Made by a program: the position numbers and the translations under genes. From positions 403,337 through 467,336 of the forward strand of contig JBALVN010000001.1 of the NCBI GenBank assembly GCA_036961455.1: DNA of 64,000 nt. The letters run 5' to 3'. Each line of letters opens with the position of its first letter. Position 1 is the stretch's first letter. Origin of the DNA: Halioglobus sp. Lineage in GTDB: Bacteria; Pseudomonadota; Gammaproteobacteria; Pseudomonadales; Halieaceae. The notes under the pieces are model-generated. The model did not search any database, was not told the origin of the DNA, and saw only the letters and a list, made by a program, of their open reading frames with translations. Shown here piece after piece: positions 3,601-36,400 of this stretch.

Positions 3601-3726
3601 CACCTATTTGCTGCCAATCTCGAGTTTAGTCAGGGAAGTCCAGTCATCTACCAGTAGTGACTTTAGTTATCCAAACATAGATATCTTCTCTTCTAATGAC
3701 TGCGTATACGTTCCTATTTTGGAACG

Positions 3727-4824
3727 CTAGGCGGCTACCTTTGTCTCAGGTGCGAGGATGAATATCCCGTCAACTGCATCTTCCAAGGGTAGTTGATGAA
3801 CTTCAGCATCAAACCTCGAAGGGGTAATCGAGTTATCCATAAGAAATCTGTATTGGGACTCATAGCCATCCAGAACTTCATTTCTCGAGACCAGGTTGTC
3901 CATGTAGGAGACCAGGTCTTTCTCTTTCTGATCGAGACCTTCGGAGAAAAAACTGCGAAGCCATGAGAAGCTGGGTTCCGAAAAACCAGACCTAAGTGAA
4001 TCTACCCATCCGTAACCGCGCTTTTCGTCGTGAGCAAAGTCCATCCATCCAGCTATTTTTGCTGAAGGTAAGATCTCCACGTAATTTTTACCAAGAAACC
4101 TTTCAGGATCATCTTTTATAATCATTTCAGTTGCTATCCGACGACTGCGTTCGCTCCACGCCTTTCGTCCCGTTTCGATCTCTGACACCGACTTGTCATA
4201 CATTTCAAGCTCTGCACTGCATCTGGCCTTCATAAGAAACGCCGTGCAATAGAAGTGCTGATAAGACATTGCTTCTAGCAAATCTGTTGATTGATCTAGA
4301 TGCTCCAGGTAATGCATAGCAGTCTGCCCCAGGGAGTCGCGCGATGAATGTAGTATGTGCGTCCTGTGCGCTAGATCTGCGGGAAGGGATGACAGCTCTT
4401 CAGCTGCAAAAAGCAAAGATGCGCGTCGACTGGTATCCAGAAAGTTCTTAATCCATACGACCTTTTTGTCGATATCTCTGATTTGGCTCTCGACGTTCTT
4501 TAGGCTGGAGTAAAGCGCTGCAAAACCAACCGCACTGACAGCTAAATTGAGCCCCGACATAGCCATGGTTGCTTGGCTCATGCTAACAAGCTCCTGAGTC
4601 GTTTTTGCGATGTCTCTTAGCTGAAAGGTGTTGACGATATCAAACGGTGCACTAAGCATACCTAATGGATTAAGTGGCGAAGTGACCGCGGGAACCAGGT
4701 GGCGAACGATCTGGCCGCCCGCACCCCTGATTACCCCACCGTGCACGGAATATTTCCCACTCAATACTCCCATCGCTACGGAGTCAGGTATGTTTCGCTC
4801 CAGGTTTAGAATGTCACCGATCAT
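3727..4824 (-). CDS. hypothetical protein with one predicted TM helix
   Basis: This is a 365-aa ORF in an AT-richer stretch. I recognise no motif in it. One hydrophobic helix is present (MAMSGLNLAVSAVGFAALYSSL). Confidence 0.5.
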   Translation of the reverse strand: MIGDILNLERNIPDSVAMGVLSGKYSVHGGVIRGAGGQIVRHLVPAVTSPLNPLGMLSAPFDIVNTFQLRDIAKTTQELVSMSQATMAMSGLNLAVSAVGFAALYSSLKNVESQIRDIDKKVVWIKNFLDTSRRASLLFAAEELSSLPADLAHRTHILHSSRDSLGQTAMHYLEHLDQSTDLLEAMSYQHFYCTAFLMKARCSAELEMYDKSVSEIETGRKAWSERSRRIATEMIIKDDPERFLGKNYVEILPSAKIAGWMDFAHDEKRGYGWVDSLRSGFSEPSFSWLRSFFSEGLDQKEKDLVSYMDNLVSRNEVLDGYESQYRFLMDNSITPSRFDAEVHQLPLEDAVDGIFILAPETKVAA

Positions 4825-5321: not shown

Positions 5322-5439
5322 CTATCGAAGCTATGTTGGGCAGACTATGGCCATATACTGCCCGAGATCTAGTTTAATTGCTGTGGCCAGAGGCGCCAAA
5401 GTCGTGACCACCGACGACAACAACCAGTTAGGCATTACC

Positions 5440-5692
5440 GGGACAGTTTACTTAATCCCTAGGGTGTATCGGTCCGTTCCATCAGACATATGTCAATTAG
5501 ACGACTTTGAGGTGTTGCAGGTTTAGCCTCCCGGGAGTGTGAGAGATTGCCGTTGTGACGCTTCGTGCGCATGGGCGATCCGGACGTCCCGCGGGCGATG
5601 ACGGTTTCGTCGAGCATTTGCAGTTTCTCACCGGCAAAGAGCTGATCAAGCGCAAGCCGGGGCCAAAGCGCTGTATTGAGTAAACTGTCCCC
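5440..5692 (+). mobile_element. 253-bp internally deleted (MITE-like) derivative of the RAYT element
   Basis: IR-L GGGACAGTTTACTTAA is at 5440 and IR-R TTGAGTAAACTGTCCCC at 5676-5692. The interior aligns to the left ~110 bp of the 10449-11262 unit and to its last 39 transposase codons (AHGRSGRPAGDDGFVEHLQFLTGK..IE*). Confidence 0.85.
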
Positions 5693-5733
5693 GTAAACCT
5701 ATACTTGCTGATAACCATCAGGAGTATCGTGCT

Positions 5734-6750
5734 ATGAGCAACCCGTTTCCTTCAGGCATCAGCCGTCGTCTTTTCGTTCAATCCGCCCTGGCCGCAGCGG
5801 TCATTCCCGCCTCCTGGGCGCAGGCTAATCCATGTCGCGGCCCTCAGCCAATACCCCCGGGTGACCTCCCCAAGGGTCCCTTCGGCGTAAGCAGCACCGC
5901 CGAGGAGGTTACAGCGGGCCTGGACCTCAGCGGCCGCAACGTGGTGATCACTGGCTGCAATTCGGGGCTGGGCTACGAGACAATGCGCGTGCTCGCCGCC
6001 AGGGGGGCGCACGTGATTGGTACCGCACGCACGGCGGAAAAAGCAGAGAAGGCTTGCGCCAGTGTGACCGGGAAAACGACACCCATGGTGCTTGAGCTGG
6101 GAAGCTACGATTCCATTCATGCCTGCACCGACGCCATTGGCGCCCTGGATATGCCGCTGGATGTCCTGATGTGCAACGCCGGCATCATGGCGCTGCCAGA
6201 ACTGAGGCTGATAAACGGGCTGGAGGCGCAGTTTGCGGTTAATCACCTTGGCCATTTCCTGTTCACCACCAATTTACTGCCCGCGGTAAAAAAGGCCGAG
6301 AATGCCAGGATTGTGATTCTCAGTAGCTGCGCCCACTTCCGCGCCCCGGAAACGGGTATTGAGTTCGACAACCTGGATGGCTCCAGGTCCTACGCGCCCT
6401 GGGTGGCTTATGGGCAGTCCAAACTCGCCAATGGGCTGTTCGCCGCTGAATTATCACGACGCTTCGCCGGAACCGGCATTACCGCCAATTCCGCGCATCC
6501 CGGCGTCATCAAAACGAATCTCGGTCGCTATATGGCCCCGAGAAAAGACGACCGCAAAGACGAGGATATTTACGACAAGGACACTGCCCAGGGAGCCGCC
6601 ACCCAGGCCTATCTGGCCGCACACCCTGCGCCCGCCAGCATTAGCGGTCAATATTTCGTCGACTGTAATCCCGCGCTTGCCAGCGAACACATGTATAACG
6701 AGCAATTGGCGGCCAGGCTTTGGGAGGTGTCAGAAGATCTGACCTCATAG
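5734..6750 (+). CDS. SDR-family oxidoreductase with Tat/Sec-type signal
   Basis: It has the TGCNSGLGYE Rossmann motif, the YGQSK catalytic YxxxK motif, and an N-terminal SRRLFVQSALAAAV signal. Confidence 0.85.
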   Translation: MSNPFPSGISRRLFVQSALAAAVIPASWAQANPCRGPQPIPPGDLPKGPFGVSSTAEEVTAGLDLSGRNVVITGCNSGLGYETMRVLAARGAHVIGTARTAEKAEKACASVTGKTTPMVLELGSYDSIHACTDAIGALDMPLDVLMCNAGIMALPELRLINGLEAQFAVNHLGHFLFTTNLLPAVKKAENARIVILSSCAHFRAPETGIEFDNLDGSRSYAPWVAYGQSKLANGLFAAELSRRFAGTGITANSAHPGVIKTNLGRYMAPRKDDRKDEDIYDKDTAQGAATQAYLAAHPAPASISGQYFVDCNPALASEHMYNEQLAARLWEVSEDLTS

Positions 6751-6758
6751 CTCCGGAC

Positions 6759-6833
6759 GGGGACAGTTGACTTAATTCCCCTGGTTCGTGGGTTCGTTTG
6801 TCAGCATCCCGGAGAACGCTATAGTTTCGTAGT
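6759..6833 (+). repeat. solo variant IR (GGGGACAGTTGACTTAA) fused to a 41-bp box (6793-6833)
   Basis: The variant 17-mer is at 6759-6775. The box TTCGTTTGTCAGCATCCCGGAGAACGCTATAGTTTCGTAGT recurs at 7993-8033 with 35/41 identity. Confidence 0.7.
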
Positions 6834-6854
6834 AAAAGGGGTCAGCGCCCTTTT
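6834..6854. terminator. hairpin AAAAGGG-GTCAGCG-CCCTTTT, likely bidirectional terminator
   Basis: A 7-bp stem is followed by a T-run on the + strand and an A-run/T-run on the - strand. It sits between convergent transcription units. Related copies lie at ~7690 and ~7757. Confidence 0.45.
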
Positions 6855-6975
6855 ATGTTGTTCTTGTGAACCTACCTAAACCGTCGGAAAGCATCGATGA
6901 GGCGCTACAGGGGTTGGCGCCTCCATGCTTACTGAGCGCCGGTCCCGACAGTGACCCCCGGTTGCTAGGAATTTG

Positions 6976-7152
6976 CTATCGCCATCTTCTCTGCGTGGAC
7001 AATTGTGCTCGCACAGACTCCGGGTCGTTCTCGATGCGCACCCTGACGGGCTCGGGACGTAATACTCGAAAAACTAAGTAGCCGACAGCGGCAAGTACGC
7101 CCAACCTGGTAAAAACGTAAGCTGAAACCATTAACGGGATATCGTTTTCCAT
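6976..7152 (-). CDS. candidate 58-aa single-TM small protein downstream of HiPIP (not in ORF track)
   Basis: Hand translation gives MENDIPLMVSAYVFTRLGVLAAVGYLVFRVLRPEPVRVRIENDPESVRAQLSTQRRWR*. A GAGG lies ~9 nt upstream of the ATG. It starts 48 nt after the HiPIP stop on the same strand. Confidence 0.3.
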   Translation of the reverse strand: MENDIPLMVSAYVFTRLGVLAAVGYLVFRVLRPEPVRVRIENDPESVRAQLSTQRRWR

Positions 7153-7200
7153 CTCATGTGCCTCAATAGTTGTAGTTTTGCTCTGGGAATTTCTTACGCC

Positions 7201-7503
7201 CTAGCCGGATTTTTTCACCCACGCGCTGCACCATCCCCCTCCGGCGACGTGCTTTGCAGGAAAAATTGCGCATGGCCCCCACTCTGTATCAGCGGGTGCT
7301 TGGAAAAGTTGGCAGTTTGAACAAAGCTTGTCGGGCTTTGGCGACTGGTGTACGTACGATAACGCTTTTGCCTGCGGATCCTGTGGATCTACTCTTGGCA
7401 CTTCGTTGGCAAGCGCTGGACGCGTGCTCGCGATAATGACGGGAGTTAGCGCGACTGCGACGGCGGTTGATTCCAAGAATTGACGGCGATTGTATTTTTT
7501 CAT
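7201..7503 (-). CDS. hip: high-potential iron-sulfur protein (HiPIP) with Tat signal
   Basis: The start is MKKYNRRQFLESTAVAVA (twin-Arg). Four Cys occur in the HiPIP pattern CSNC...C...C(SAW). GGAG lies 7 nt upstream of the ATG at 7503. The longer 7581 start in the ORF track is unlikely. Confidence 0.85.
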   Translation of the reverse strand: MKKYNRRQFLESTAVAVALTPVIIASTRPALANEVPRVDPQDPQAKALSYVHQSPKPDKLCSNCQLFQAPADTEWGPCAIFPAKHVAGGGWCSAWVKKSG

Positions 7504-7685
7504 GGCTAACTCCAGTGTTGGTTTAAGATATCTACGTGTCGATTTGCGAAATAGATTAGAAGCAGAGTTGTACAGAGGCATCCTGGCTAACCGCGCGTTT
7601 GGTGAGCAAAAAATAAAGAGCGTTAAGCCAAGTGTGGAATATCTGAGGTGTTCACATTTTGTGCAGCTTGCAGTGGCCGATGACG

Positions 7686-7819
7686 GCTTTAAGGGGTCAG
7701 AGCCCTTTTATGGATTACGGGGCCAGTTCACTTAATTCTTGGAGTGTCTTGAGCTTTAAGGGGTCAGAGCCCTTTTATGGATTGCGGGGCCAGTTCACTT
7801 AATTCCTGGAGTGTCTTGG
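7686..7819 (+). repeat. 67-bp tandem duplication (2 units, 3 mismatches), each with a hairpin plus a variant IR GGGGCCAGTTCACTTAA
   Basis: The units are 7686-7752 and 7753-7819. The variant IRs are at 7719-7735 and 7786-7802. Confidence 0.85.
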
Positions 7820-8033
7820 GTCGTCCCATGAGATATGACTTAATCCGATGACATTGAGCATTGCCGTTGTAGCCTCCCGGTGCTGTGACAGATTGAAGTC
7901 GTGACGCTTCGTGGCCGGTTGATAGATATGCCAACCCGCCAAAACCTGCCTTATAACGATGACTACCAACCGCTGCCCGCCAAAGGCAGGGCTTCGTTTG
8001 TCACTATCCCAGAGAATGCTATAGTTTGGTGGT
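7786..8033 (+). mobile_element. degenerate left-end fragment of the repeat family, ending in the 41-bp box
   Basis: Positions 7786-7910 align with the left ~130 bp of the 5440 copy (..TAGCCTCCCGG.GCTGTGA.AGATTG..GTGACGCTTCGTG). No right IR is present. The fragment ends in the box at 7993-8033. Confidence 0.6.
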
Positions 8034-8039
8034 CAATGG

Positions 8040-9737
8040 ATGGAAAATCGTATGGCATCGTTCTTTACTGAGCTCAGGCGCCGGCACGTTGTCAAGGTTG
8101 CGGTCGCCTATGTTGTCACCGGGTGGCTTGTGGCCCAGGCCGCGGAGTTTTTGCTCGAGAGTTTTTCCACACCTGAATGGATCCTGCAGACGCTGATTGT
8201 CTTGCTGCTTTTGGGCTTTCCCATTGCCATTGTGCTGGCATGGGCGTTTGAACTTACCCCCGATGGTGTCCAACTCGACAGCGCTGTCGAAGACAAGCCT
8301 CTTCTGCAAGCCGCTGATGCTCAACTCGGCTTGCTCGTTAACTCTCCCGAACACTCTATCGCGGTGCTTCCTTTTGCTGACATGTCTCCCGATCACGACC
8401 AGGAGTATTTTTCAGATGGCCTGACTGAAGAGTTGCTCAACCTTTTGTCGAAGGTTTCAGGCTTGCATGTTGCGTCGCGCACCTCGGCTTTTTCCTTCAA
8501 GGGCAGGCAAGAGGATATTTGTGAGATAGCACAGAAGCTGCGCGTCAGGCATGTGCTCGAGGGCAGCGTTCGCAAAGCGGGTGATCAGTTACGCATTACT
8601 GCTCAGCTGATCAAGGCGCAGGATGGTTATCATCTTTGGTCCGAGACTTACGATCGCTCAATAGAAAATGTGTTTGCGGTTCAGGATGAAATCGCGCGAG
8701 CTGTGGTGGAGTCCCTCAAGTTGCAGTTGCTGGGCGAGGCGCCGGTGGTTCGTGAAACCAGTTCGGAAGCCTACAACCTCTATCTGCAGGCGATGCATCT
8801 TAAAATGCATCGAACACCTGACTCGCTAAATCTGGCCATGGACTACCTGGAGCGGGCGGTTGCTATAGATCCCGAGTACGCTCCGGCCTGGGCGTTATTG
8901 TCGGAGGTTTATGCTTTACGCGGTGGCTCCAGTGGGTCCGGTTGGGAGGAGGGTGTGGCGGCCAGTCGCAAGGCGCTCGAGCGCGCCCTGGAGCTGGATA
9001 CTGAGATTGCTGGCGCCTGGGTAAGCCAGGGGCAGCTTAAAAGTTATTACGAGTGGGATTGGGAAGGGGCGCGCAAGGACCTGGAACGCGCCCGCACACT
9101 GGCGCCGAACAACAGCGGCGTCTACGTGGCGCAGGCACGTCTGGCGCGCCACGAAGGCCGTTTGGAAGATTCTGTTGCGCTCTGTGACCAGGCCATTGCA
9201 CTGGACCCCATCAACCAGGACGCACATAGCGACAGGGCACGGGCGCTTTACTATCTGGGGCGATTGGAGGAGGCGGAGGCGGGGTTTCAGGCGCTCATGA
9301 CCTTGAACCCTTTACACCATAATGCCTTTGGCTTTTTGCGTCGGATCGATGCGGCGCGTGGCAACCTGGATCGCGCCCTGGAGCGAGACACAACCTTTAT
9401 TCCCTTCTGGTCTGATTTCAACTGGCTGGTGTTGGGCTATCGTTACCAGCGTACACAGGAGTGCGAGGCAAAACTCGCCGCTTTCGTCGACGCAAACGCG
9501 GATGAGGGCGCGTTCCAGATCGCTGAAATATACGCCTTTGCCGGTGAAGCAGATATCGCCTTTGAATGGCTGGAACTCTCCGTCAAGCAGCGAGACCCCG
9601 GTCTCACCGATGAGCTGTTGTCGACTGAAACGCTGCGAGGCTTGCACGATGACGCCCGCTGGGAGCCCCTGGTTGCAAGGCTTGGTCTTCTCGATGCTTA
9701 CCGGGCAATGCCCGGGGACAGTTTACTTAATTCCTAG
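8040..9737 (+). CDS. membrane-anchored TPR-repeat protein with TolB-N-like periplasmic domain
   Basis: There is an N-terminal TM helix. The IAVLPFADMSPDHDQEYFSDGLTEELL motif is typical of this family, and the C-terminal part has multiple TPR-like repeats. An alternative start, MASFF, is at 8052. The last 8 codons and the stop lie inside the MITE at 9714. Confidence 0.8.
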   Translation: MENRMASFFTELRRRHVVKVAVAYVVTGWLVAQAAEFLLESFSTPEWILQTLIVLLLLGFPIAIVLAWAFELTPDGVQLDSAVEDKPLLQAADAQLGLLVNSPEHSIAVLPFADMSPDHDQEYFSDGLTEELLNLLSKVSGLHVASRTSAFSFKGRQEDICEIAQKLRVRHVLEGSVRKAGDQLRITAQLIKAQDGYHLWSETYDRSIENVFAVQDEIARAVVESLKLQLLGEAPVVRETSSEAYNLYLQAMHLKMHRTPDSLNLAMDYLERAVAIDPEYAPAWALLSEVYALRGGSSGSGWEEGVAASRKALERALELDTEIAGAWVSQGQLKSYYEWDWEGARKDLERARTLAPNNSGVYVAQARLARHEGRLEDSVALCDQAIALDPINQDAHSDRARALYYLGRLEEAEAGFQALMTLNPLHHNAFGFLRRIDAARGNLDRALERDTTFIPFWSDFNWLVLGYRYQRTQECEAKLAAFVDANADEGAFQIAEIYAFAGEADIAFEWLELSVKQRDPGLTDELLSTETLRGLHDDARWEPLVARLGLLDAYRAMPGDSLLNS

Positions 9738-9887
9738 GGTGCGCTGGTTCTTTCCATCAGATCTGTGCCAATGGGATGACTTTGGGGTAGTGCCGACGGT
9801 TTCGTCGAGCAATTGCAGCGACTCACCGGCAAAGCGCTGATCAAGCGAAAGTTGGGGCCAAAGTGTTGTATTGGGTAAACTGTCCCC
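9714..9887 (+). mobile_element. 174-bp MITE-like derivative of the RAYT element
   Basis: IR-L GGGGACAGTTTACTTAA is at 9714-9730 and IR-R TTGGGTAAACTGTCCCC at 9871-9887. The interior keeps the last 28 transposase codons (DGFVEQLQRLTGKALIKRK..). Confidence 0.85.
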
Positions 9888-9899
9888 TTACACCCTGGT

Positions 9900-10331
9900 T
9901 TATTTCTTTTTTGCGTACTTAACCATTTCCCGGTAGGTCATATAGCTATCACAGGCAGTTTCAGTCTCCTCATCTAGGTGAAAGAAATTGTTGAGATCAT
10001 TCTCCGGGTTATCAGAATATACAATCGCCTTCACAAGTTTGTTGTAGGCCTGTCTGTCGCTTGCTTTTGTTGCAGCCAGCATAATACCAACTGAATCCAG
10101 AATACTGTTAAAGCCGGCTTCTCCACCTAGTTCAGCCAGTTCCTTGCTAATTAGATTCATTCCATCCAGGCAAGATCCATTTGCTACTGCTTTTCCCTTT
10201 TTCATGTTTCGTTCGGTGAGCTTCTTAACTACTTCCTTTTTGTATGACTCCTCAAATGATGCAGCCGAAACAAACTGTGCAGTAGTCATGCAGAGTGCAA
10301 ACGCCAAAAGTGACTTTATAAAAATTCCCAT
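9900..10331 (-). CDS. secreted hypothetical protein (AT-rich orphan)
   Basis: It has a signal peptide (LLAFALCMTTAQFVSA) and is Lys-rich. The gene is visibly more AT-rich than its neighbours. Confidence 0.5.
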   Translation of the reverse strand: MGIFIKSLLAFALCMTTAQFVSAASFEESYKKEVVKKLTERNMKKGKAVANGSCLDGMNLISKELAELGGEAGFNSILDSVGIMLAATKASDRQAYNKLVKAIVYSDNPENDLNNFFHLDEETETACDSYMTYREMVKYAKKK

Positions 10332-10448
10332 TAATTTATCTCCGGATTAGTTTTTTGTCTGAGAGTAATAATGGTTCTTTAGAGTGTCAGGATATATGAC
10401 AGGAAGCGCCACTAGCATGACGCCAGGCGACAGAATTCATTGCTGTAC

Positions 10449-11262
10449 GGGGACAGTTTACTTAACTCCTAGGGTGTGCGGTTCTTTCCATCATATCTGT
10501 GCCAATGGGATGACTTTGGGGTATGGCAGTTGTAGCCTCCGTGGATCTAGTTGGTTATCACTGATGGCGCCTGGTGCGTGGTGGATTCATATGGCAAGGA
10601 TGCCCAGACTGGTGGTGCCGGGGTTGCCCCATCATGTGACGCAGCGTGGTGCTCGGCGCATGAAGACTTTCTTCAATTCGAGCGATTATCTTAGGTATCT
10701 CGATCTAATAGTTGAGTATAGAGAGTTGGCAGGTGCGGATATCTGGGCCTATTGCTTAATGCCAAATCATGTTCATTTGGTGGTAGTGCCACAGGATAAA
10801 GATAGCCTCGCGGTTCTGTTTCGCCATGTCCACCGGCGCTATACGCGGGAAATTAACGTCCGTGAAGGTTGTACCGGACATCTCTGGCAGGAACGCTATC
10901 ATTCGTTTGTGATGGACGAGAATCACTTGTTGGCCACTGTCCGATACGCAGAGCTGAACCCTGTGCGGGCGAAGTTGTGTGACCGTGCAGAGGATTGGCC
11001 CTGGTCAAGCGTTCATGCGCATCTGGCCGAAGAGGACGATGCCGTCGTTTCAGTTGCGCCCATGCTGCAGCGCGTATCAGATTGGACCGCTTATCTGTCG
11101 CAGACTCAAAATAACGATGAACTGGAACGTATTCGGGCGCATGGGCGATCCGGCCGTCCAGCGGGCGATGACGGTTTTGTCGAGCATTTGCAGTTCCTCA
11201 CCGGCAAAGCGCTGATTAGGCGAAAGTCAGGCCCTAAGCATCGTATTGAGTAAACTGTCCCC
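10449..11262 (+). mobile_element. full-length RAYT/IS200-like element bounded by 17-nt inverted repeats
   Basis: IR-L GGGGACAGTTTACTTAA (10449-10465) and IR-R TTGAGTAAACTGTCCCC (11246-11262) enclose the transposase ORF. The ORF's TAA stop (11251-11253) is part of IR-R. Confidence 0.85.
10591..11253 (+). CDS. REP-associated tyrosine transposase (RAYT) / IS200-like HUH-Y1 transposase
   Basis: It has LPHHVTQRG, the HUH motif PNHVHLVV, WQERYHS, and the catalytic-Tyr region VRYAELNPVRA...WPWSS. The architecture matches E. coli RayT/YafM. The ATG at 10591 is preferred because the 10384 extension reads through IR-L. Confidence 0.85.
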   Translation: MARMPRLVVPGLPHHVTQRGARRMKTFFNSSDYLRYLDLIVEYRELAGADIWAYCLMPNHVHLVVVPQDKDSLAVLFRHVHRRYTREINVREGCTGHLWQERYHSFVMDENHLLATVRYAELNPVRAKLCDRAEDWPWSSVHAHLAEEDDAVVSVAPMLQRVSDWTAYLSQTQNNDELERIRAHGRSGRPAGDDGFVEHLQFLTGKALIRRKSGPKHRIE

Positions 11263-11342
11263 TTTCACGAAGTGATAGCGGGGCTTTTCAAATTGTATAT
11301 ACAAAATAAGTTTGCAATAGAAGCTCTGCGGCATACAATTGA

Positions 11343-11462
11343 ATGCGATACGAATGGGATGAAGCGAAAGCCACTGTAAATCATGCCAAGCATGGCGTGG
11401 CTTTTGAAATGGTGAAAGACTTCGAGTGGGAGTCAGCGCTAGTGAACGAGAAATCAGCAACT
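11343..11462 (+). pseudogene. brnT: BrnT (DUF497) toxin remnant, N-terminal ~35 codons only
   Basis: MRYEWDEAKATVNHAKHGVAFEMVKDFEWESALV matches the BrnT N-terminus (WDExKxxxNxxKHGxxF). The remaining ~55 codons are absent, and the frame runs straight into brnA. Confidence 0.6.
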
Positions 11463-11825
11463 ATGAAAAAGCCAGCAGGAAAACGTAAGTTGGTACGTCC
11501 AACGCCTGAGCAAAATGAACAGATCAATGCCGGTATTGCCGCAGACCCGGATACCCGGGAACTGACTGCAAAGGATTTCGAACGAATGCGCCCGGCTGCG
11601 GATGTTCACCCTGAGATAGTAGAGGCCTATCGTCGCTCTCGTGGTAAGCAGAAGGCGCCCACCAAGATCGCAACGTCAATTCGGTTAAGTCCAGATGTTC
11701 TAGCCGCCTATAAGCAAACCGGGGCAGGATGGCAACGCCGGATTGACGAAGATCTGCAGAAGATTGTGGCCAGGCGCAAAGTTAAACAGTCTCCACGGAA
11801 ACGTGGCGGGGGACAGTTTACTTAA
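11463..11825 (+). CDS. brnA: BrnA-family antitoxin
   Basis: GIAADPDTRELTAKDFERMRPA...SIRLSPDVLAAYKQTGAGWQRRIDEDL matches the BrnA/COG3514 pattern. The stop TAA (11823-11825) is the last 3 nt of the IR-L of the next MITE. Confidence 0.7.
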   Translation: MKKPAGKRKLVRPTPEQNEQINAGIAADPDTRELTAKDFERMRPAADVHPEIVEAYRRSRGKQKAPTKIATSIRLSPDVLAAYKQTGAGWQRRIDEDLQKIVARRKVKQSPRKRGGGQFT

Positions 11826-11982
11826 CTCCCGGGGTGCATTGCTTCGTTTCATCAGATCTGTGCCAATGGGATGACTCCGGGGTAGTGCAGACGGTTTCGT
11901 TGAGCATTTGCAGTTACTCACCGGCAAAGATCTGATCAAGTGAAAGCTGGGGCCAAGGCGCTGTATTGAGTAAACTGTCCCC
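11809..11982 (+). mobile_element. 174-bp MITE-like derivative of the RAYT element
   Basis: IR-L is at 11809-11825 and IR-R TTGAGTAAACTGTCCCC at 11966-11982. Its internal structure matches the copy at 9714. Confidence 0.85.
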
Positions 11983-12005
11983 GTAGACCAGAGTGAGGGC
12001 AACGC

Positions 12006-12815
12006 ATGCTAGTAGAAGAACATAATTGGGAATTTCTTCAGGTTGAGCGCAAGGGGCGCGTATTGACGGTGCGCTTCGACGGCGGCAACAAGGTCAATGC
12101 GCTGAGCAACGCCCTGATGCGTGAACTGATTGCCTTGCCGCAGATGCTGGAGGACGATGCTGAGCTGAGCGCCGTGGTGCTAATGGGGCAGGATTCGATT
12201 TTCAGCGGCGGCATGGACCTGAAGGATCCGGATAACGTTCGTGTGCGCGACATGACCGTGGCGCAACGGCGCAAGTTGGTGCAGTTGGGGCCGAGAATGT
12301 GTGCAGCCTGGGAAGCCATTGAACCGGTAACCATTGCCGCCATTGAAGGCTGGTGTGTCGGTGGTGGCATGGCCCTGATCAGCGCCTGTGACTGGCGTGT
12401 GGCATCAACGCAAACCCAACTCTATGTTCCCGAACTGCGTCTGGGCATGAACATGAGCTGGCAGAGTGTGCCACGCTTTGTCAGCCTGATCGGGCCGGCA
12501 AAAACCAAGCAGTTACTCATTCTTGCCGAGCCGCTGGATGCCTCTACAGCGCATCAGTGGGGTTTGGTGGATTATCTCGCCGAACCGGGAAACTGCTACG
12601 CCATGGCGATGGAACTTGCTGACAAGGTGGCGGCCATGCCGCCTATTCCCGTGCGTATGGCCAAGCAGGGCATCAACAAGGCTGCCAACGCGTTAAACGA
12701 TGCAACCAGCTTTATGGACGCAGACCAGTTTCTGCTCGCGCAGGCGACGGAAGACGCGGTTGAGGGACCACGCGCGTTCTTTGAAAAACGTGCACCCAAA
12801 TTTGAGGGGAATTAG
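12006..12815 (+). CDS. enoyl-CoA hydratase/isomerase (crotonase) family protein
   Basis: It shows the crotonase fold signature (..FSGGMDLKD.., ..IAAIEGWCVGGGMALISACD..). Confidence 0.8.
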   Translation: MLVEEHNWEFLQVERKGRVLTVRFDGGNKVNALSNALMRELIALPQMLEDDAELSAVVLMGQDSIFSGGMDLKDPDNVRVRDMTVAQRRKLVQLGPRMCAAWEAIEPVTIAAIEGWCVGGGMALISACDWRVASTQTQLYVPELRLGMNMSWQSVPRFVSLIGPAKTKQLLILAEPLDASTAHQWGLVDYLAEPGNCYAMAMELADKVAAMPPIPVRMAKQGINKAANALNDATSFMDADQFLLAQATEDAVEGPRAFFEKRAPKFEGN

Positions 12816-12821
12816 ATTACT

Positions 12822-12995
12822 GGGACAGTTTACCTAACTCCCGGGGGTGCATTGCTTCGGTCCATCAGCTCTGTGCTGATGGGATGGCTCCGGGGCAGAG
12901 CAGACGGTTTCGTCGAGCAATTACAGCTGCTCACCGGCAAAGAGCTGATCAAGCGCAAGCCGGGGCCAAGGCGCTGTATTAAGTAAACTGTCCCC
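12822..12995 (+). mobile_element. 174-bp MITE-like derivative of the RAYT element
   Basis: IR-L GGGACAGTTTACCTAA is at 12822-12837 and IR-R TTAAGTAAACTGTCCCC at 12979-12995. It fills the whole gap between two convergent genes. Confidence 0.85.
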
Positions 12996-20912: not shown

Positions 20913-20938
20913 TCCCGTGCCCTTCGGGCCGGTTCAAA

Positions 20939-20995
20939 GGGACAGTTTACTTAATAGGACGATGGCGTAGCAGGTGGATTAAGTAAACTGTCCCC
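20939..20995. repeat. 57-bp minimal copy: IR-L and IR-R separated by a 24-bp spacer (REPIN-like hairpin)
   Basis: The sequence is GGGACAGTTTACTTAA-TAGGACGATGGCGTAGCAGGTGGA-TTAAGTAAACTGTCCCC. Confidence 0.8.
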
Positions 20996-31604: not shown

Positions 31605-31901
31605 TGTGGTCACTAGCAACCCGCTGAGTATCGACACCTTAGGCTACCAGCACCGAACTATAGGACATACAGAGGGGCTATCGTATCGTAAGCAGGTCTC
31701 CTCATGGATACGAGTTACCAGGCCTGGCAATATCGCGAACAGCCGGTCTTGCGCATCAATTACTCGTGGAGTGTTAAAAAGAGCCGTTAATACTGTTGGG
31801 GCTCCTGCGAAAGAGTACTAATTTATTTGGTTTCTGGACGGTCTGGGAAAACTGACCGGGCGAAATTCCAGGAAGCGAATGCCGTGGCCAAAGGCTGGAG
31901 A

Positions 31902-31916
31902 TAAGTAAACTGTCCC
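31902..31916 (+). repeat. solo right-end IR (TAAGTAAACTGTCCC) next to the tmRNA 3' end
   Basis: It matches IR-R of the RAYT family. A possibly degenerate left arm, GGGAAAACTGACC, lies at ~31845. Confidence 0.55.
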
Positions 31917-31941
31917 TCCAATTACCGTCCGGAATCTACGC

Positions 31942-31978: not shown

Positions 31979-32368
31979 TGGTGGAGGCGGCCGGAATTGA
32001 ACCGGCGTCCGCCAGACCTCTGCCTTCGGCTCTACATGCTTAGTTTCCGTTAATTAATTTAGCTGCACACAGCCCAACGGGCAGGACGTGATTAGCGATT
32101 TCTGTAAAGTTTTAGCGGCGCCGTCCAGAACATACTTTGCCGCGAGCCAGTTCTTTATGACAGTCAATAACGCGGGGCTGGCACCTTGTCATTGACCGCT
32201 AGGGCCGAAGCCTCTAGATGGTGTCTAGTGACTGCTTACGCAGCCAGTTGAGCACCGTAGTTGTCGTCGTTGGCAACTAATAGTTTGCAGCTTTGGATTA
32301 ACGTGATTGGCTACCATCACGGCATGCACCTTAGGGTTTGTATCCGTCGTCGAATCCAAATCGCCCCC
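31979..32368 (-). ncRNA. ssrA: tmRNA (SsrA), tag peptide ANDDNYGAQLAA
   Basis: The 5' end GGGGGCGATTTGGATTCGACG and 3' end GGACGCCGGTTCAATTCCGGCCGCCTCCACCA match the tmRNA acceptor/T-arm. The tag ORF GCC AAC GAC GAC AAC TAC GGT GCT CAA CTG GCT GCG TAA is at 32236-32274. Confidence 0.93.
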
Positions 32369-33409: not shown

Positions 33410-36400
33410 CTACCAGCCTGATTTATCTTTTAGCCGTTGCCTACCAAGCGATCCTGTCAGGGCGACAAGGGCAATCAGGAAGGGTAGAGGCAGCGATGGA
33501 ACCGGCGTAGGCAGTGCGTCTGGACCCGAGCCGCCTACCGCAAATGTCGCCGAGGCGTTGTTGTTGTCGGTGTTTCCATCTGGAACAGATCCGGCAGTGC
33601 TAATACTGGACGCGGCGGTGACTGACCCCGTAGCTGGCACAATGAACTCAAACGTAATGCCGGTATAGTCGGCGCTGGGAGACAGGTCGCTGGCGAGCCC
33701 CGTGAACGCCACAGAGCCGTCACCGGTGTTATAGGCCGCGGTCACGCCCGATGGCAGGTTGCTGAATACTACGCCATCTAGGCCAGGGCTCAGGGCGAGG
33801 GTGTAACTTACATCGGTTACCGTGGTCACGCCAAGATTCTGATAACTCACAGACCCTTGTACCGTGGTGCCAGGCTCGCCGGATGAAGGCATAGTGACGC
33901 CAGTCGCTAAATCTACGGTATCAACCCCTGGAGGGTTGGTAGCACAGGCCGGCGTTGCAGGCGGATAGGAGACCGACAGTGACTCGGTTGGGTTTACCGT
34001 GATCCTGACCGTCATGTTAGGTCTCACGTCAGAGGGGACGACGACCCATTCACCATTCACAAAGTCCCATCCCGGCCAGTCCGTTGGGTTGCCGTCGGCA
34101 TCAACTGCCGCTTCGGGCCAAAGAATACGCGTTCGGGACAGCGGCTGATCGGTAAGCGTTTGCACCACTGCACCACTGGCGCCCAAAAACTCAACCGTCG
34201 CGAGATCCGTTGGGTCGGGAGTAAAGCCCACTGGAGTCACTTCGTATTCAATGTACGGCGTGTCGTTGTCACAGACTGCCGTTATGTCGAGGGTGAGCGC
34301 CCTGACAGCAAGCGTGCTTGAAGAGGTATTGTTAGTCTCATCACCATCGACAATTGGCCCGCTGGTATCGATCGATGAAACCGCCTCTACCGAACCGTCG
34401 GCAGGAACAACGAATTCGAAGTTGATCCCGGTATAGGTGGCTCCAGGCGACAAGGAGGAGGGCAGGCCGGTAAAGCTCACGGTGCCGTCGGCGTCGTTGT
34501 ACAGCGCTGTCACGCCTGCAGGGAGAGTCGTGAATGTTACAGCGCCCAGCCCGGGAGTGAGCGTCAGTGAGTAACTGACATTCTCAACCGCATAAACTCC
34601 TATGTTCTCAAAGGACACCGTACCCTGCACGGTATCACCAGTTTCAGCGTCTGTCGGCAGTGTAGTTGTGGTGGCAAGGTCGACCGTATCGACGCCCGGA
34701 GGCTGTGCGGCACAGGCCGGAGTCGCTGGCGGGTAGCTAACGCTAATCGAATCTGTGGGATTTACGGTGATCCTGACCGTCATGTTAGGTCTCACGTCAG
34801 AGGGGACGACGACCCATTCACCATTCACAAAGTCCCATCCCGGCCAGTCCGTTGGGTTGCCGTCGGCATCAACTGCCGCTTCGGGCCAAAGAATACGCGT
34901 TCGGGACAGCGGCTGATCGGTAAGCGTTTGCACCACTGCACCACTGGCGCCCACAAATTCGATGGTGGCCAGATCTGCTGGGCCGGGAGTGAAGCCAGCG
35001 GCTGTGACCTCGTACTCTACGTAGGGCGTGTCTTTATCGCATATGCTAGCGGCCGCCACGTTGACGACCCTGTTTACGGTCATTGTGCTGGTGTCGTCAT
35101 CATTGTCGGGATCTATATCGGCGATTGCGCCTCCGACTGTAATGTCGGATGTTGCTGTAACAGTGCCTGCAGCAGGTGTTGTGAAGTCAAACAAAATACC
35201 TGACAGGTCTGTTCCGGGGAGTAGTATTGATGGAAGACCGGTGAAGGTGACCACTCCCGTTGCGCTTGAGTATGTAGCGCCAACACCCGCAGGCAGGTTG
35301 CTGAAGTTGACTGTGCCAAGTCCTGGGTCAAGGGTCAGTGATACCGAATCCAGGTAAACGCCGACAGGGCTATTGTTGACGAAAGACACCGAGCCTTGTG
35401 CGCCGGCACCGGGATTAGCAGAAGCCGGTAGTGATACGGTCGACAGCAAGTCTACATTCTCTGCACCCGGAGGCGCTGCGTAGCAGCTGGCGGCGATCGC
35501 CGGATAGGTTTCGGTGGTGGAATCGACGACACCATCAACAGTAAAGCGGATGCCTACGGTGGGCAAAACTGTAGAGGTCGTTGGCTGCCAATACCCGCTA
35601 TTAAAGACCCAGCCCGGCCACGAGGTGCCAACTCCGCCGCCATCAACCGAAGCGCCCGGCCACAGCACCCGCCCACCTGTAAGGGGCTGATTAGTCAGGG
35701 TGTCGACGACATTGTTGCCGCTGTCTATGAACTCAACGGTCGCACTACCAGATGGCGTGAAGAACTGGGCGGTCAGGTTGTAATCCACGTAAGGGAGGTC
35801 GTTAGCGCAGGACACTGCTGTACTGGACGTTATGACCCGCGTGCGGAACGACGTGCTGGACACAGAAGTGTTGTTGTCTAAAAGGTCGTCCGCCGGGTTG
35901 GCGCTAATATTTGCTGTTATCTCTACGCTGGAATCGTCGATGGCAGGGCCGGGGTAGGTAAAGCTAATGGCCAGAAACTCACCAAAGGGCAGATCATTCG
36001 GCATGCCGGTGAATGTGACCGCGCCTGTGCCCGCGTCATAGGAGGCCGTAACGCCCGCTGGAAGACTGGTAAAGGTGACACTTGCTGGTTTTGTTGTCGA
36101 TGACGTGCCGAATTCGAGGCTATAGGACACATCGGTGGCGTTATTGGGGCCAAGGCTCGCGAATGTAACGGCCCCGCCTACCGTGTTCCCTGTGTTTTCC
36201 ATTGAGGGAACACCGGTAATCTGAGCCGAGAGATCAAATGTAGAAACGATAAGCGGTTGAGTGGAAATGTTGTTTGCAGGCAGTGCGTCAGTAACGCCCG
36301 ACGCCTGTATCTCGGTCGTTGACGTGTATACGCCGGCGGCGGGGGCATTAAACGAGTAGGTGAGGCCGGTGATCCTGTCGCCAGCATTCAGGCTACTAGG

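Follow-up and report, generated by a model that had tools for sequence, protein, structure and literature searches.

What kind of mobile element combines a transposase gene of the HUH/Y1 type with long terminal inverted repeats (TIRs) and a set of short gene-less relatives? This question is raised by a 64-kb stretch of DNA from Halioglobus sp. (GCA_036961455.1, contig JBALVN010000001.1, positions 403,337 to 467,336), which we call the window. An initial annotation had described there a RAYT-like HUH/Y1 gene (RAYT stands for REP-associated tyrosine transposase, and REP for repetitive extragenic palindromic sequence) that is bounded by TIRs and accompanied by internally deleted copies resembling miniature inverted-repeat transposable elements (MITEs). 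Our analysis supports this description. We consider it probable that the locus is a TIRtron, in other words a TIRYT gene (subclass 2.1, or Group 1, of the RAYTs) with its TIRs, together with a local cluster of non-autonomous derivatives.

The full-length unit is 814 bp long (10449..11262, plus strand). That it consists of two inverted repeats around a 220-aa HUH-Y1 open reading frame (ORF), as first proposed, was borne out by sequence reading and alignment. The left TIR core (GGGGACAGTTTACTTAA, 10449..10465, plus strand, no mismatches) is followed by a 125-nt leader, the TIRYT gene (10591..11253, plus strand) and the right TIR core (11246..11262, minus strand; TTGAGTAAACTGTCCCC on the plus strand). 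The right core includes the final two codons of the gene and its TAA stop codon. TIRs also overlap the 3' end of the gene in the homologue loci L201, L203 and L204.

The protein contains the motifs NHVH, WQ, YAELNP and WSS, embedded in PNHVHLV (the HUH motif), HLWQERY, RYAELNP (with the catalytic tyrosine, Y119) and WPWSSVH. It matches the Pfam family Y1_Tnp (E=8.5e-11). Its best NCBIfam match is REP_Tyr_transpos (NF047646, an equivalog model), at 77.6 bits and thus under the 80-bit cutoff. Its sole relative in the PDB is TnpA-REP of E. coli (4er8, E=2.4e-6), and the PDB search matched none of the IS200/IS608 TnpA structures at E<=1. Together with the Y...NP motif, the REP_Tyr_transpos and TnpA-REP matches set the ORF apart from ordinary IS200 TnpA. 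The 220-aa protein has more than 8000 matches among database proteins, and most of the close homologues are 217–223 aa long. The top match is an identical protein from a metagenome-assembled genome of Halioglobus sp. Many homologues sit on contigs of about 1 kb, which is the size of the element.

RAYT-like genes that are flanked by long TIRs instead of REPs have been described before; the proteins were named TIRYTs and the units TIRtrons (Di Nocera, De Gregorio and Rocco 2013, BMC Genomics 14:522, PMC3733652). TIRtrons share the TIR motif GGGGWSAS, their TIRs overlap the gene ends, and the TIRs form moderately abundant families that occur as singles, dimers or clusters (PMC3733652). Twenty of the 26 TIRYTs were later placed in subclass 2.1 of TnpA-Y1 (Quentin et al. 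2018, PMC6006769), the counterpart of Group 1 in Bertels et al. (2017). Subclass 2.1 proteins have a median length of 238 aa and the motifs NHVH, W[EQ], YIELNP or Y[IV]HLNP, and SS in the proximal tail (PMC6006769). Group 1 is the largest RAYT group. It averages fewer than two copies per replicon, is rare on plasmids, has the second-highest duplicate fraction and was called IS-like, and its flanking 16-mers are moderately repeated (Bertels et al. 2017, PMC5581495).

Judged by its sequence, the window protein belongs to this published TIRYT family. It shares 54% identity with GSU2396 of G. sulfurreducens (216 aa, gapless, E=2e-86) and 46% over the full length with mll6832 of M. loti; the two reference sequences are those in Additional file 5 of the 2013 paper by Di Nocera et al. 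(PMC3733652). The locus also resembles the published TIRtrons in other respects: a RAYT-like gene lies between long TIRs with a GGGGWSAS head, the 3' TIR can overlap the gene, and TIRs recur as singles, dimers and clusters. The resemblance to subclass 2.1 and Group 1 extends from the motifs and the similar length of the protein to the low copy number, the mostly chromosomal location and the moderately repeated flanking 16-mers. Because TIRYTs and TIRtrons were already described in 2013, and linked to subclass 2.1 in 2018, the proposal that the locus represents a new intermediate architecture has to be given up.

What the locus adds is modestly useful. First, it contains a MITE-like derivative that has demonstrably multiplied. 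Second, its TIR core is conserved far beyond the protein. Deletion derivatives with coding remnants, and a single junction class found at three sites, go beyond the TIRtron description in the available text of Di Nocera et al. That text gives an 8-nt motif only, whereas all 17 nt of the window core are common to several families and phyla.

The evidence for multiplication comes from the short copies, of which there are four, all on the plus strand. All four had been noticed in the initial annotation, with two starts off by 1 nt. The corrected copies are a 254-bp copy at 5439..5692 (first base C), two 174-bp copies at 9714..9887 and 11809..11982, and a 175-bp copy at 12821..12995. In the alignment with the full unit the 174-bp copies consist of the left ~82 nt and the right ~92 nt, whereas the 254-bp copy has its own junction and retains the left ~129 nt and the last 39 codons plus the stop codon. 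That the short copies retain a 3' coding remnant of the transposase gene was part of the earlier description and survives a more stringent test. A hidden Markov model (HMM) built from homologues of the 220-aa protein matches the translated short copies at profile positions ~180–219, with E=1e-11 for the 254-bp copy, 3e-5 for the copy at 12821, 4e-4 for the one at 9714 and 1.5e-3 for the one at 11809. The retained C-terminal stretch (...GRP.G...F...L....G..L...K.G.K) is also conserved in the two published TIRYT proteins, GSU2396 and mll6832. Hence, it is ancestral coding sequence and not read-through into the repeat.

In all three 174/175-bp copies the deletion junction is the same, with ...GGGGTAGTGCA joined to GACGGTTTCG..., and their flanks are unrelated. 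One junction at three unrelated sites implies a single deletion followed by multiplication of the derivative. One 174-bp deletion derivative has thus reached three or more sites that are unrelated. The 254-bp copy stems from a separate deletion.

The short copies had been regarded as derivatives of the resident autonomous unit, which is not what the alignments show. Their right arms are 87–93% identical among themselves and only 80–86% identical to the resident gene. Each copy differs from this gene at 13–18 positions, 7–10 of which are third codon positions. This bias and the right-arm identities indicate that the parent was another, functional TIRYT copy, and at the level of sequence comparison the resident TIRYT copy is not the one from which the short copies stem.

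How widespread are these repeats? The 17-nt TIR core has 16 matches in the window with at most two mismatches, compared with none in all 100 dinucleotide shuffles. Thirteen matches fall within 5439–12995, two lie at 20938–20995 and one at 31901. The head of the TIR, GGGGACAG, reads GGGG-A-C-A-G and fits the published GGGGWSAS. The core is not confined to the locus either. A scan for exact core matches in one genome per species yielded at least 120 matching loci. The matches listed come from Gammaproteobacteria (Halieaceae, Woeseiaceae, Chromatiaceae, Granulosicoccaceae and others), Alphaproteobacteria (Mesorhizobium, Aquibium, Hoeflea, Caulobacteraceae and others), Thermodesulfobacteriota, Acidobacteriota and Planctomycetota. 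Since about 140 single matches are expected by chance in the whole collection according to our calculation, only inverted pairs were counted as evidence.

In 120 loci among the matches listed, plus the window, there are 300 core matches with at most three mismatches, and these form 104 inverted pairs. Most pairs are short: 80 are 39–89 bp long, 17 are 104–254 bp and 7 are 662–814 bp. Pairs of 39–254 bp were found in several phyla among the matches listed. One of them, a 153-bp element in a gammaproteobacterial genome (locus L027), contains a significant C-terminal remnant. In 7–10 TIR-selected loci with full-length units, the homologues are 53–62% identical to the window protein, and the cores match at 14–17 of 17 positions. 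The 17-nt core is almost invariant while the enzyme varies; conservation is thus much stronger in the DNA site than in the protein.

Loci selected by their TIRs are bound to contain TIRs. To avoid this ascertainment, four homologues were picked by protein alone (63–69% identity). The same core is present on both sides of every one of them, and in three the right TIR overlaps the stop codon. Comparison across genomes thus shows gene and TIR to be linked. Additional TIRs and gene fragments accumulate around the gene in these loci; L201 has six left and four right TIRs. L201 also contains a truncated N-terminal TIRYT fragment upstream of the gene and a second Y1_Tnp gene 1.4 kb downstream. Downstream of its TIRYT gene, at 3640–3815, right ends with a C-terminal remnant (cgcaagccgggcccgaagccgggaattaagtaaactgtcccc) are arranged in tandem with a spacing of about 56 nt.

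The TIR pairs of Alphaproteobacteria deserve a separate remark. Their total length is tightly conserved (74–79 bp), their spacers are largely unrelated, and their outer extensions are genome-specific. Such pairs occur in Hoeflea/Rhizobiaceae (L023, L046, L063, L074, L084, L088 and others) and in Aquibium (L002, L019, L053, L102; for example GGAAATRC). A cognate full-length gene was not seen within the 8-kb blocks around them. A literature search with the TIR sequence found no relevant paper.

Comparison across genomes also shows that the TIR is longer than 17 nt. Its full consensus of about 27 nt reads GAATTNC-GGGGACAGTTTACTTAA-TT. The complementarity of the two arms is 0.6–0.75 over 6–7 nt outward of the core (consensus G-N-A-A-T-T-C) and at background level beyond; inward of the core it persists for about 3 nt. 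The outer sequence varies between lineages and is mirrored between the arms of one element. In the window elements this outer part is only weakly kept (GTAA-like).

Two other readings of the outer sequence were considered and rejected. In the window, TTAC or GTAC stands before three of the left ends, which could be taken for an IS608-like TTAC target. Across genomes, however, the outer consensus is GAATTNC and appears in mirror image on the two arms, which makes it an extension of the TIR instead of a target. A self-hairpin inside each TIR, formed by the outer GAATT and the inner AATTC, was dropped as well: no covariation is seen in lineages whose outer sequences differ.

The absence of target-site duplications is informative about the chemistry. 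In 103 elements no direct k-mer repeats were found at any offset, and what looks like an excess of AATT at offset 2 is due to the palindromic TIR extension. The lack of a duplication is consistent with HUH chemistry and speaks against a DDE-type MITE.

The initial annotation had also proposed that every copy can fold into one long hairpin. This holds for two copies, those at 11809 and 12821, where only 1–2 of 300 shuffles reach the observed complementarity of the arms beyond the TIR. It does not hold for the 814-bp unit, the 254-bp copy and the copy at 9714, in which this complementarity is not above that of shuffled sequences. Outside the window a long hairpin beyond the TIR is significant in one of ten units tested (L077). 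Predicted single-stranded DNA folds are closed by TIR pairing with z-scores of -3 to -7, and their interior is not one continuous hairpin.

Closely related systems are REPINs with their RAYTs, and REPtrons, as known from TnpA-REP of E. coli and the REPINs of P. fluorescens. There, too, a single Y1 gene is bracketed by inverted repeats, target-site duplications are absent, and many short gene-less units that form hairpins cluster around the gene and are scattered between genes. They are nearest by structure (4er8) and by curated HMM, although the score for REP_Tyr_transpos is below the equivalog cutoff. Unlike REPs, the TIR of the window is not palindromic and lacks the 5' GT[AG]G head, so that a hairpin requires both ends of the element; no GTAG-headed hairpins flank the window TIRYT gene. 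The window protein is also about 60 aa longer and has a conserved C-terminal tail. With IS200/IS605 elements (IS608, ISDra2) the window element shares the HUH/Y1 catalytic core, the lack of target duplication and, presumably, the single-stranded DNA chemistry. It lacks their subterminal hairpins without TIRs, their Y...Q motif, their shorter protein and the tnpB gene that often accompanies them. In addition, IS200/IS605 elements are multi-copy and near-identical, whereas the window copies are 65–93% identical.

One could also argue that the locus is a domesticated system of the REPIN/RAYT type. In this case, the short TIR hairpins are useful to the host, for example through mRNA or DNA structure, and are maintained by a TIRYT that is present in one copy and inherited vertically; the full unit itself has become immobile. 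Several observations fit. The window contains one intact TIRYT gene and at least nine gene-less units, which are found at the 3' ends of genes and between genes, and hairpins of 39–89 bp far outnumber full units across genomes. Group 1 RAYTs have fewer than two copies per replicon and are rare on plasmids (PMC5581495). Our own search for plasmid carriage found only eight weak and distant matches (at most 43% identity), and viral contigs contained 12 unpaired TIR matches and no paired TIRs. However, the same group has the second-highest duplicate fraction and is IS-like according to Bertels et al. (PMC5581495), and many homologues are found on element-sized contigs. L201 has gene fragments and a second Y1 gene near its TIRYT gene, the short copies go back to a second functional copy of the gene, and an identical TIR core in several phyla suggests horizontal spread. 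We regard domestication as rather unlikely.

It is far less probable that the short copies are full-length elements that decayed in place through independent deletions, without mobilisation in trans. The 254-bp copy has its own junction with possible GCG microhomology, and the one-ended fragments at 6759, 7719–7913 and 31873 show that decay in situ occurs. Yet three 174/175-bp copies have the same junction, unrelated flanks and no recombinogenic homology, and independent identical deletions are improbable.

That we are dealing with an ordinary IS200/IS605 element, or with a DDE-type TIR element or MITE family carrying a Y1 passenger gene, seems hardly conceivable: the Pfam family is named "Transposase IS200 like" and TIR-bounded MITEs are typical of DDE elements, but both versions are rejected because of the motifs (Y...NP and not the Y...Q of IS200 subclass 1.1, PMC6006769), the missing target-site duplications in 103 elements and the gene-TIR linkage (right TIR overlapping the Y1 stop codon; four of four protein-first loci), and against them stand also the match to TnpA-REP but to no IS200/IS608 TnpA structure at E<=1, the lack of tnpB and the lack of a DDE gene inside any unit.

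The TIRtron with its mobilised derivatives remains the best explanation, even though several observations weigh against it. First, no empty site or presence/absence polymorphism was found in a metagenome scan and an all-versus-all comparison of the loci. The metagenome scan used the neighbouring enoyl-CoA hydratase and recovered relatives with at most 70% amino acid identity that have neither common neighbours nor TIRs. An exact-protein look-up, also made in search of empty sites, returned nothing on record, and the locus comparison revealed only orthologous or duplicated occupied sites. Second, the copies in the window are 7–35% diverged from one another. Third, strand specificity, as expected of IS200-like single-stranded DNA transposition, is not evident, because the ends of a TIR element read alike on both strands. 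The orientation of 14 full-length loci shows no consistent pattern relative to GC skew, and the sense strand is G-rich in only four of them. In the window itself all nine oriented units are on the plus strand, and GC skew is positive throughout. Fourth, a REP is self-complementary, but a single TIR is not. Fifth, no REP-like hairpins were reported near subclass 2.1 genes and the link to TIRYTs was left to confirm (PMC6006769), whereas the repeats in the window are explicit. Finally, the C-terminal tail (residues 137–220) has no Pfam match even at E<=10 and hence no recognisable helix-turn-helix (HTH) or DnaA_C domain. Subclass 2.1 proteins have HTH-like C-terminal domains (Bac_DnaA_C, HTH_23, HTH_28), with heterogeneous tails in subgroup 2.1.2 (PMC6006769).

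How could a TIRtron mobilise its derivatives? By analogy with TnpA-REP and IS200/IS605, the HUH/Y1 enzyme would act in trans on single-stranded DNA. There the two TIRs of one element would pair, turning the 814-nt unit into a panhandle and the short forms into simple hairpins. The enzyme would recognise and cleave the conserved GGGG...CCCC foot together with its flanks. After excision or copying, the TIR-bounded unit would be rejoined at another place with no duplication, in the manner of REPs and REPINs with RAYTs and of IS200/IS605. As a single TIR is not palindromic, the likely substrate is the stem formed by both TIRs of one element. Short elements would form this stem most easily, which matches the numerical dominance of the short forms; short forms may dominate since short hairpins form more readily.

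We tentatively suggest that TIRYTs use a mode uncharacterised for HUH/Y1 enzymes, in which non-palindromic TIRs pair in single-stranded DNA and the enzyme cuts the GGGG/CCCC foot of the stem between the ends. We think this possible rather than probable. Such a mode would explain why the core has stayed the same across phyla although protein identity has fallen to about 50%. It would also explain the arm-symmetric, lineage-specific outer extensions of the TIRs and why miniature hairpins have out-multiplied the gene.

The remaining TIR-related features of the window range from a complete miniature to one-ended fragments, all on the plus strand. The minimal TIR dimer (20938..20995, 58 bp) is a near-perfect hairpin with a predicted single-stranded DNA fold of -15.9 kcal/mol (z=-7). 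A solo left-end fragment at 6759..6800 comprises a TIR with one mismatch and left-arm-like sequence (repeat family D6). Diverged left-end fragments without a right end occupy 7719..7913 (GGGGCCAGTTCACTTAA; families D5, D9 and D11). They begin with a 67-bp tandem duplication, followed by about 128 nt that are collinear with the left arm and leader of the 254-bp copy. A solo right-end fragment at 31873..31917 consists of a degenerate C-terminal remnant and a TIR (families D4 and D8). The 3' end of the transfer-messenger RNA (tmRNA) gene is a classic integration hot spot. The solo right-end fragment adjoins such a gene (31979–32368, minus strand; Rfam RF00023, 189.6 bits), 62 nt beyond the tmRNA 3' end. 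No known RNA family was found over the repeats.

Another repeat whose head is of the GGGGWSAS type, (A)AGGGGTCAGAGCCCTTTTATG, is present on the plus strand at 6838–6857, 7693–7712 and 7760–7779, where 0.01 occurrences are expected. It lies 25–40 nt upstream of a left TIR in two window copies and in three copies of the unrelated locus L201 (2471, 2889 and 4874; AAGGGGTCAGACTCCTTGAAAG). Perhaps it represents another TIR family that the element nests in, or else an accessory site.

Some of the short copies are intertwined with neighbouring genes. The left TIR of the copy at 9714 provides the final codons and the stop codon of the upstream tetratricopeptide repeat (TPR) gene (8040–9737). The copy at 11809 overlaps the 3' end of a 160-aa ORF (11343–11825, plus strand), whose final codons and stop codon are likewise supplied by the left TIR. 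This ORF is an apparent fusion of a truncated BrnT toxin N-terminus (residues 5–38, below the Pfam cutoff) and a complete BrnA antitoxin domain. The copy at 12821 lies between convergent enoyl-CoA hydratase and M16 peptidase genes. Between the copy at 9714 and the full TIRtron sits an AT-rich 143-aa ORF (9900–10331, minus strand) with a signal-peptide-like N-terminus, no Pfam match and a composition unlike that of its neighbours. A direct repeat of about 41 nt (TTCGTTTGTCA..ATCCC.GAGAA.GCTATAGTTT.G) occurs at 6793–6833, after the solo TIR at 6759, and at 7993–8033, just upstream of the TPR gene start at 8040; the two copies are about 80% identical. Two 300-nt direct repeats at 33903–34202 and 34671–34970 (87% identical, 768 nt apart) are unrelated to the TIR family.

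What does the locus mean for the TIRYT family? No new class of element comes to light here. TIRYTs and subclass 2.1 form the largest RAYT-like group, yet they are essentially unstudied. If the transposition mode suggested above is true, the locus would be the first genomic demonstration of non-autonomous partners mobilised by subclass 2.1 (Group 1) RAYTs. With its intact gene, its same-junction derivatives and the lack of target-site duplications, it would then also be a ready set of substrates for in vitro experiments. Together, the locus and the census supply substrates that can be tested: a TIR of about 27 nt, minimal hairpins of 39–58 bp and a 174-bp derivative that has multiplied. These should be useful for testing how a Y1 HUH enzyme handles inverted-repeat ends.

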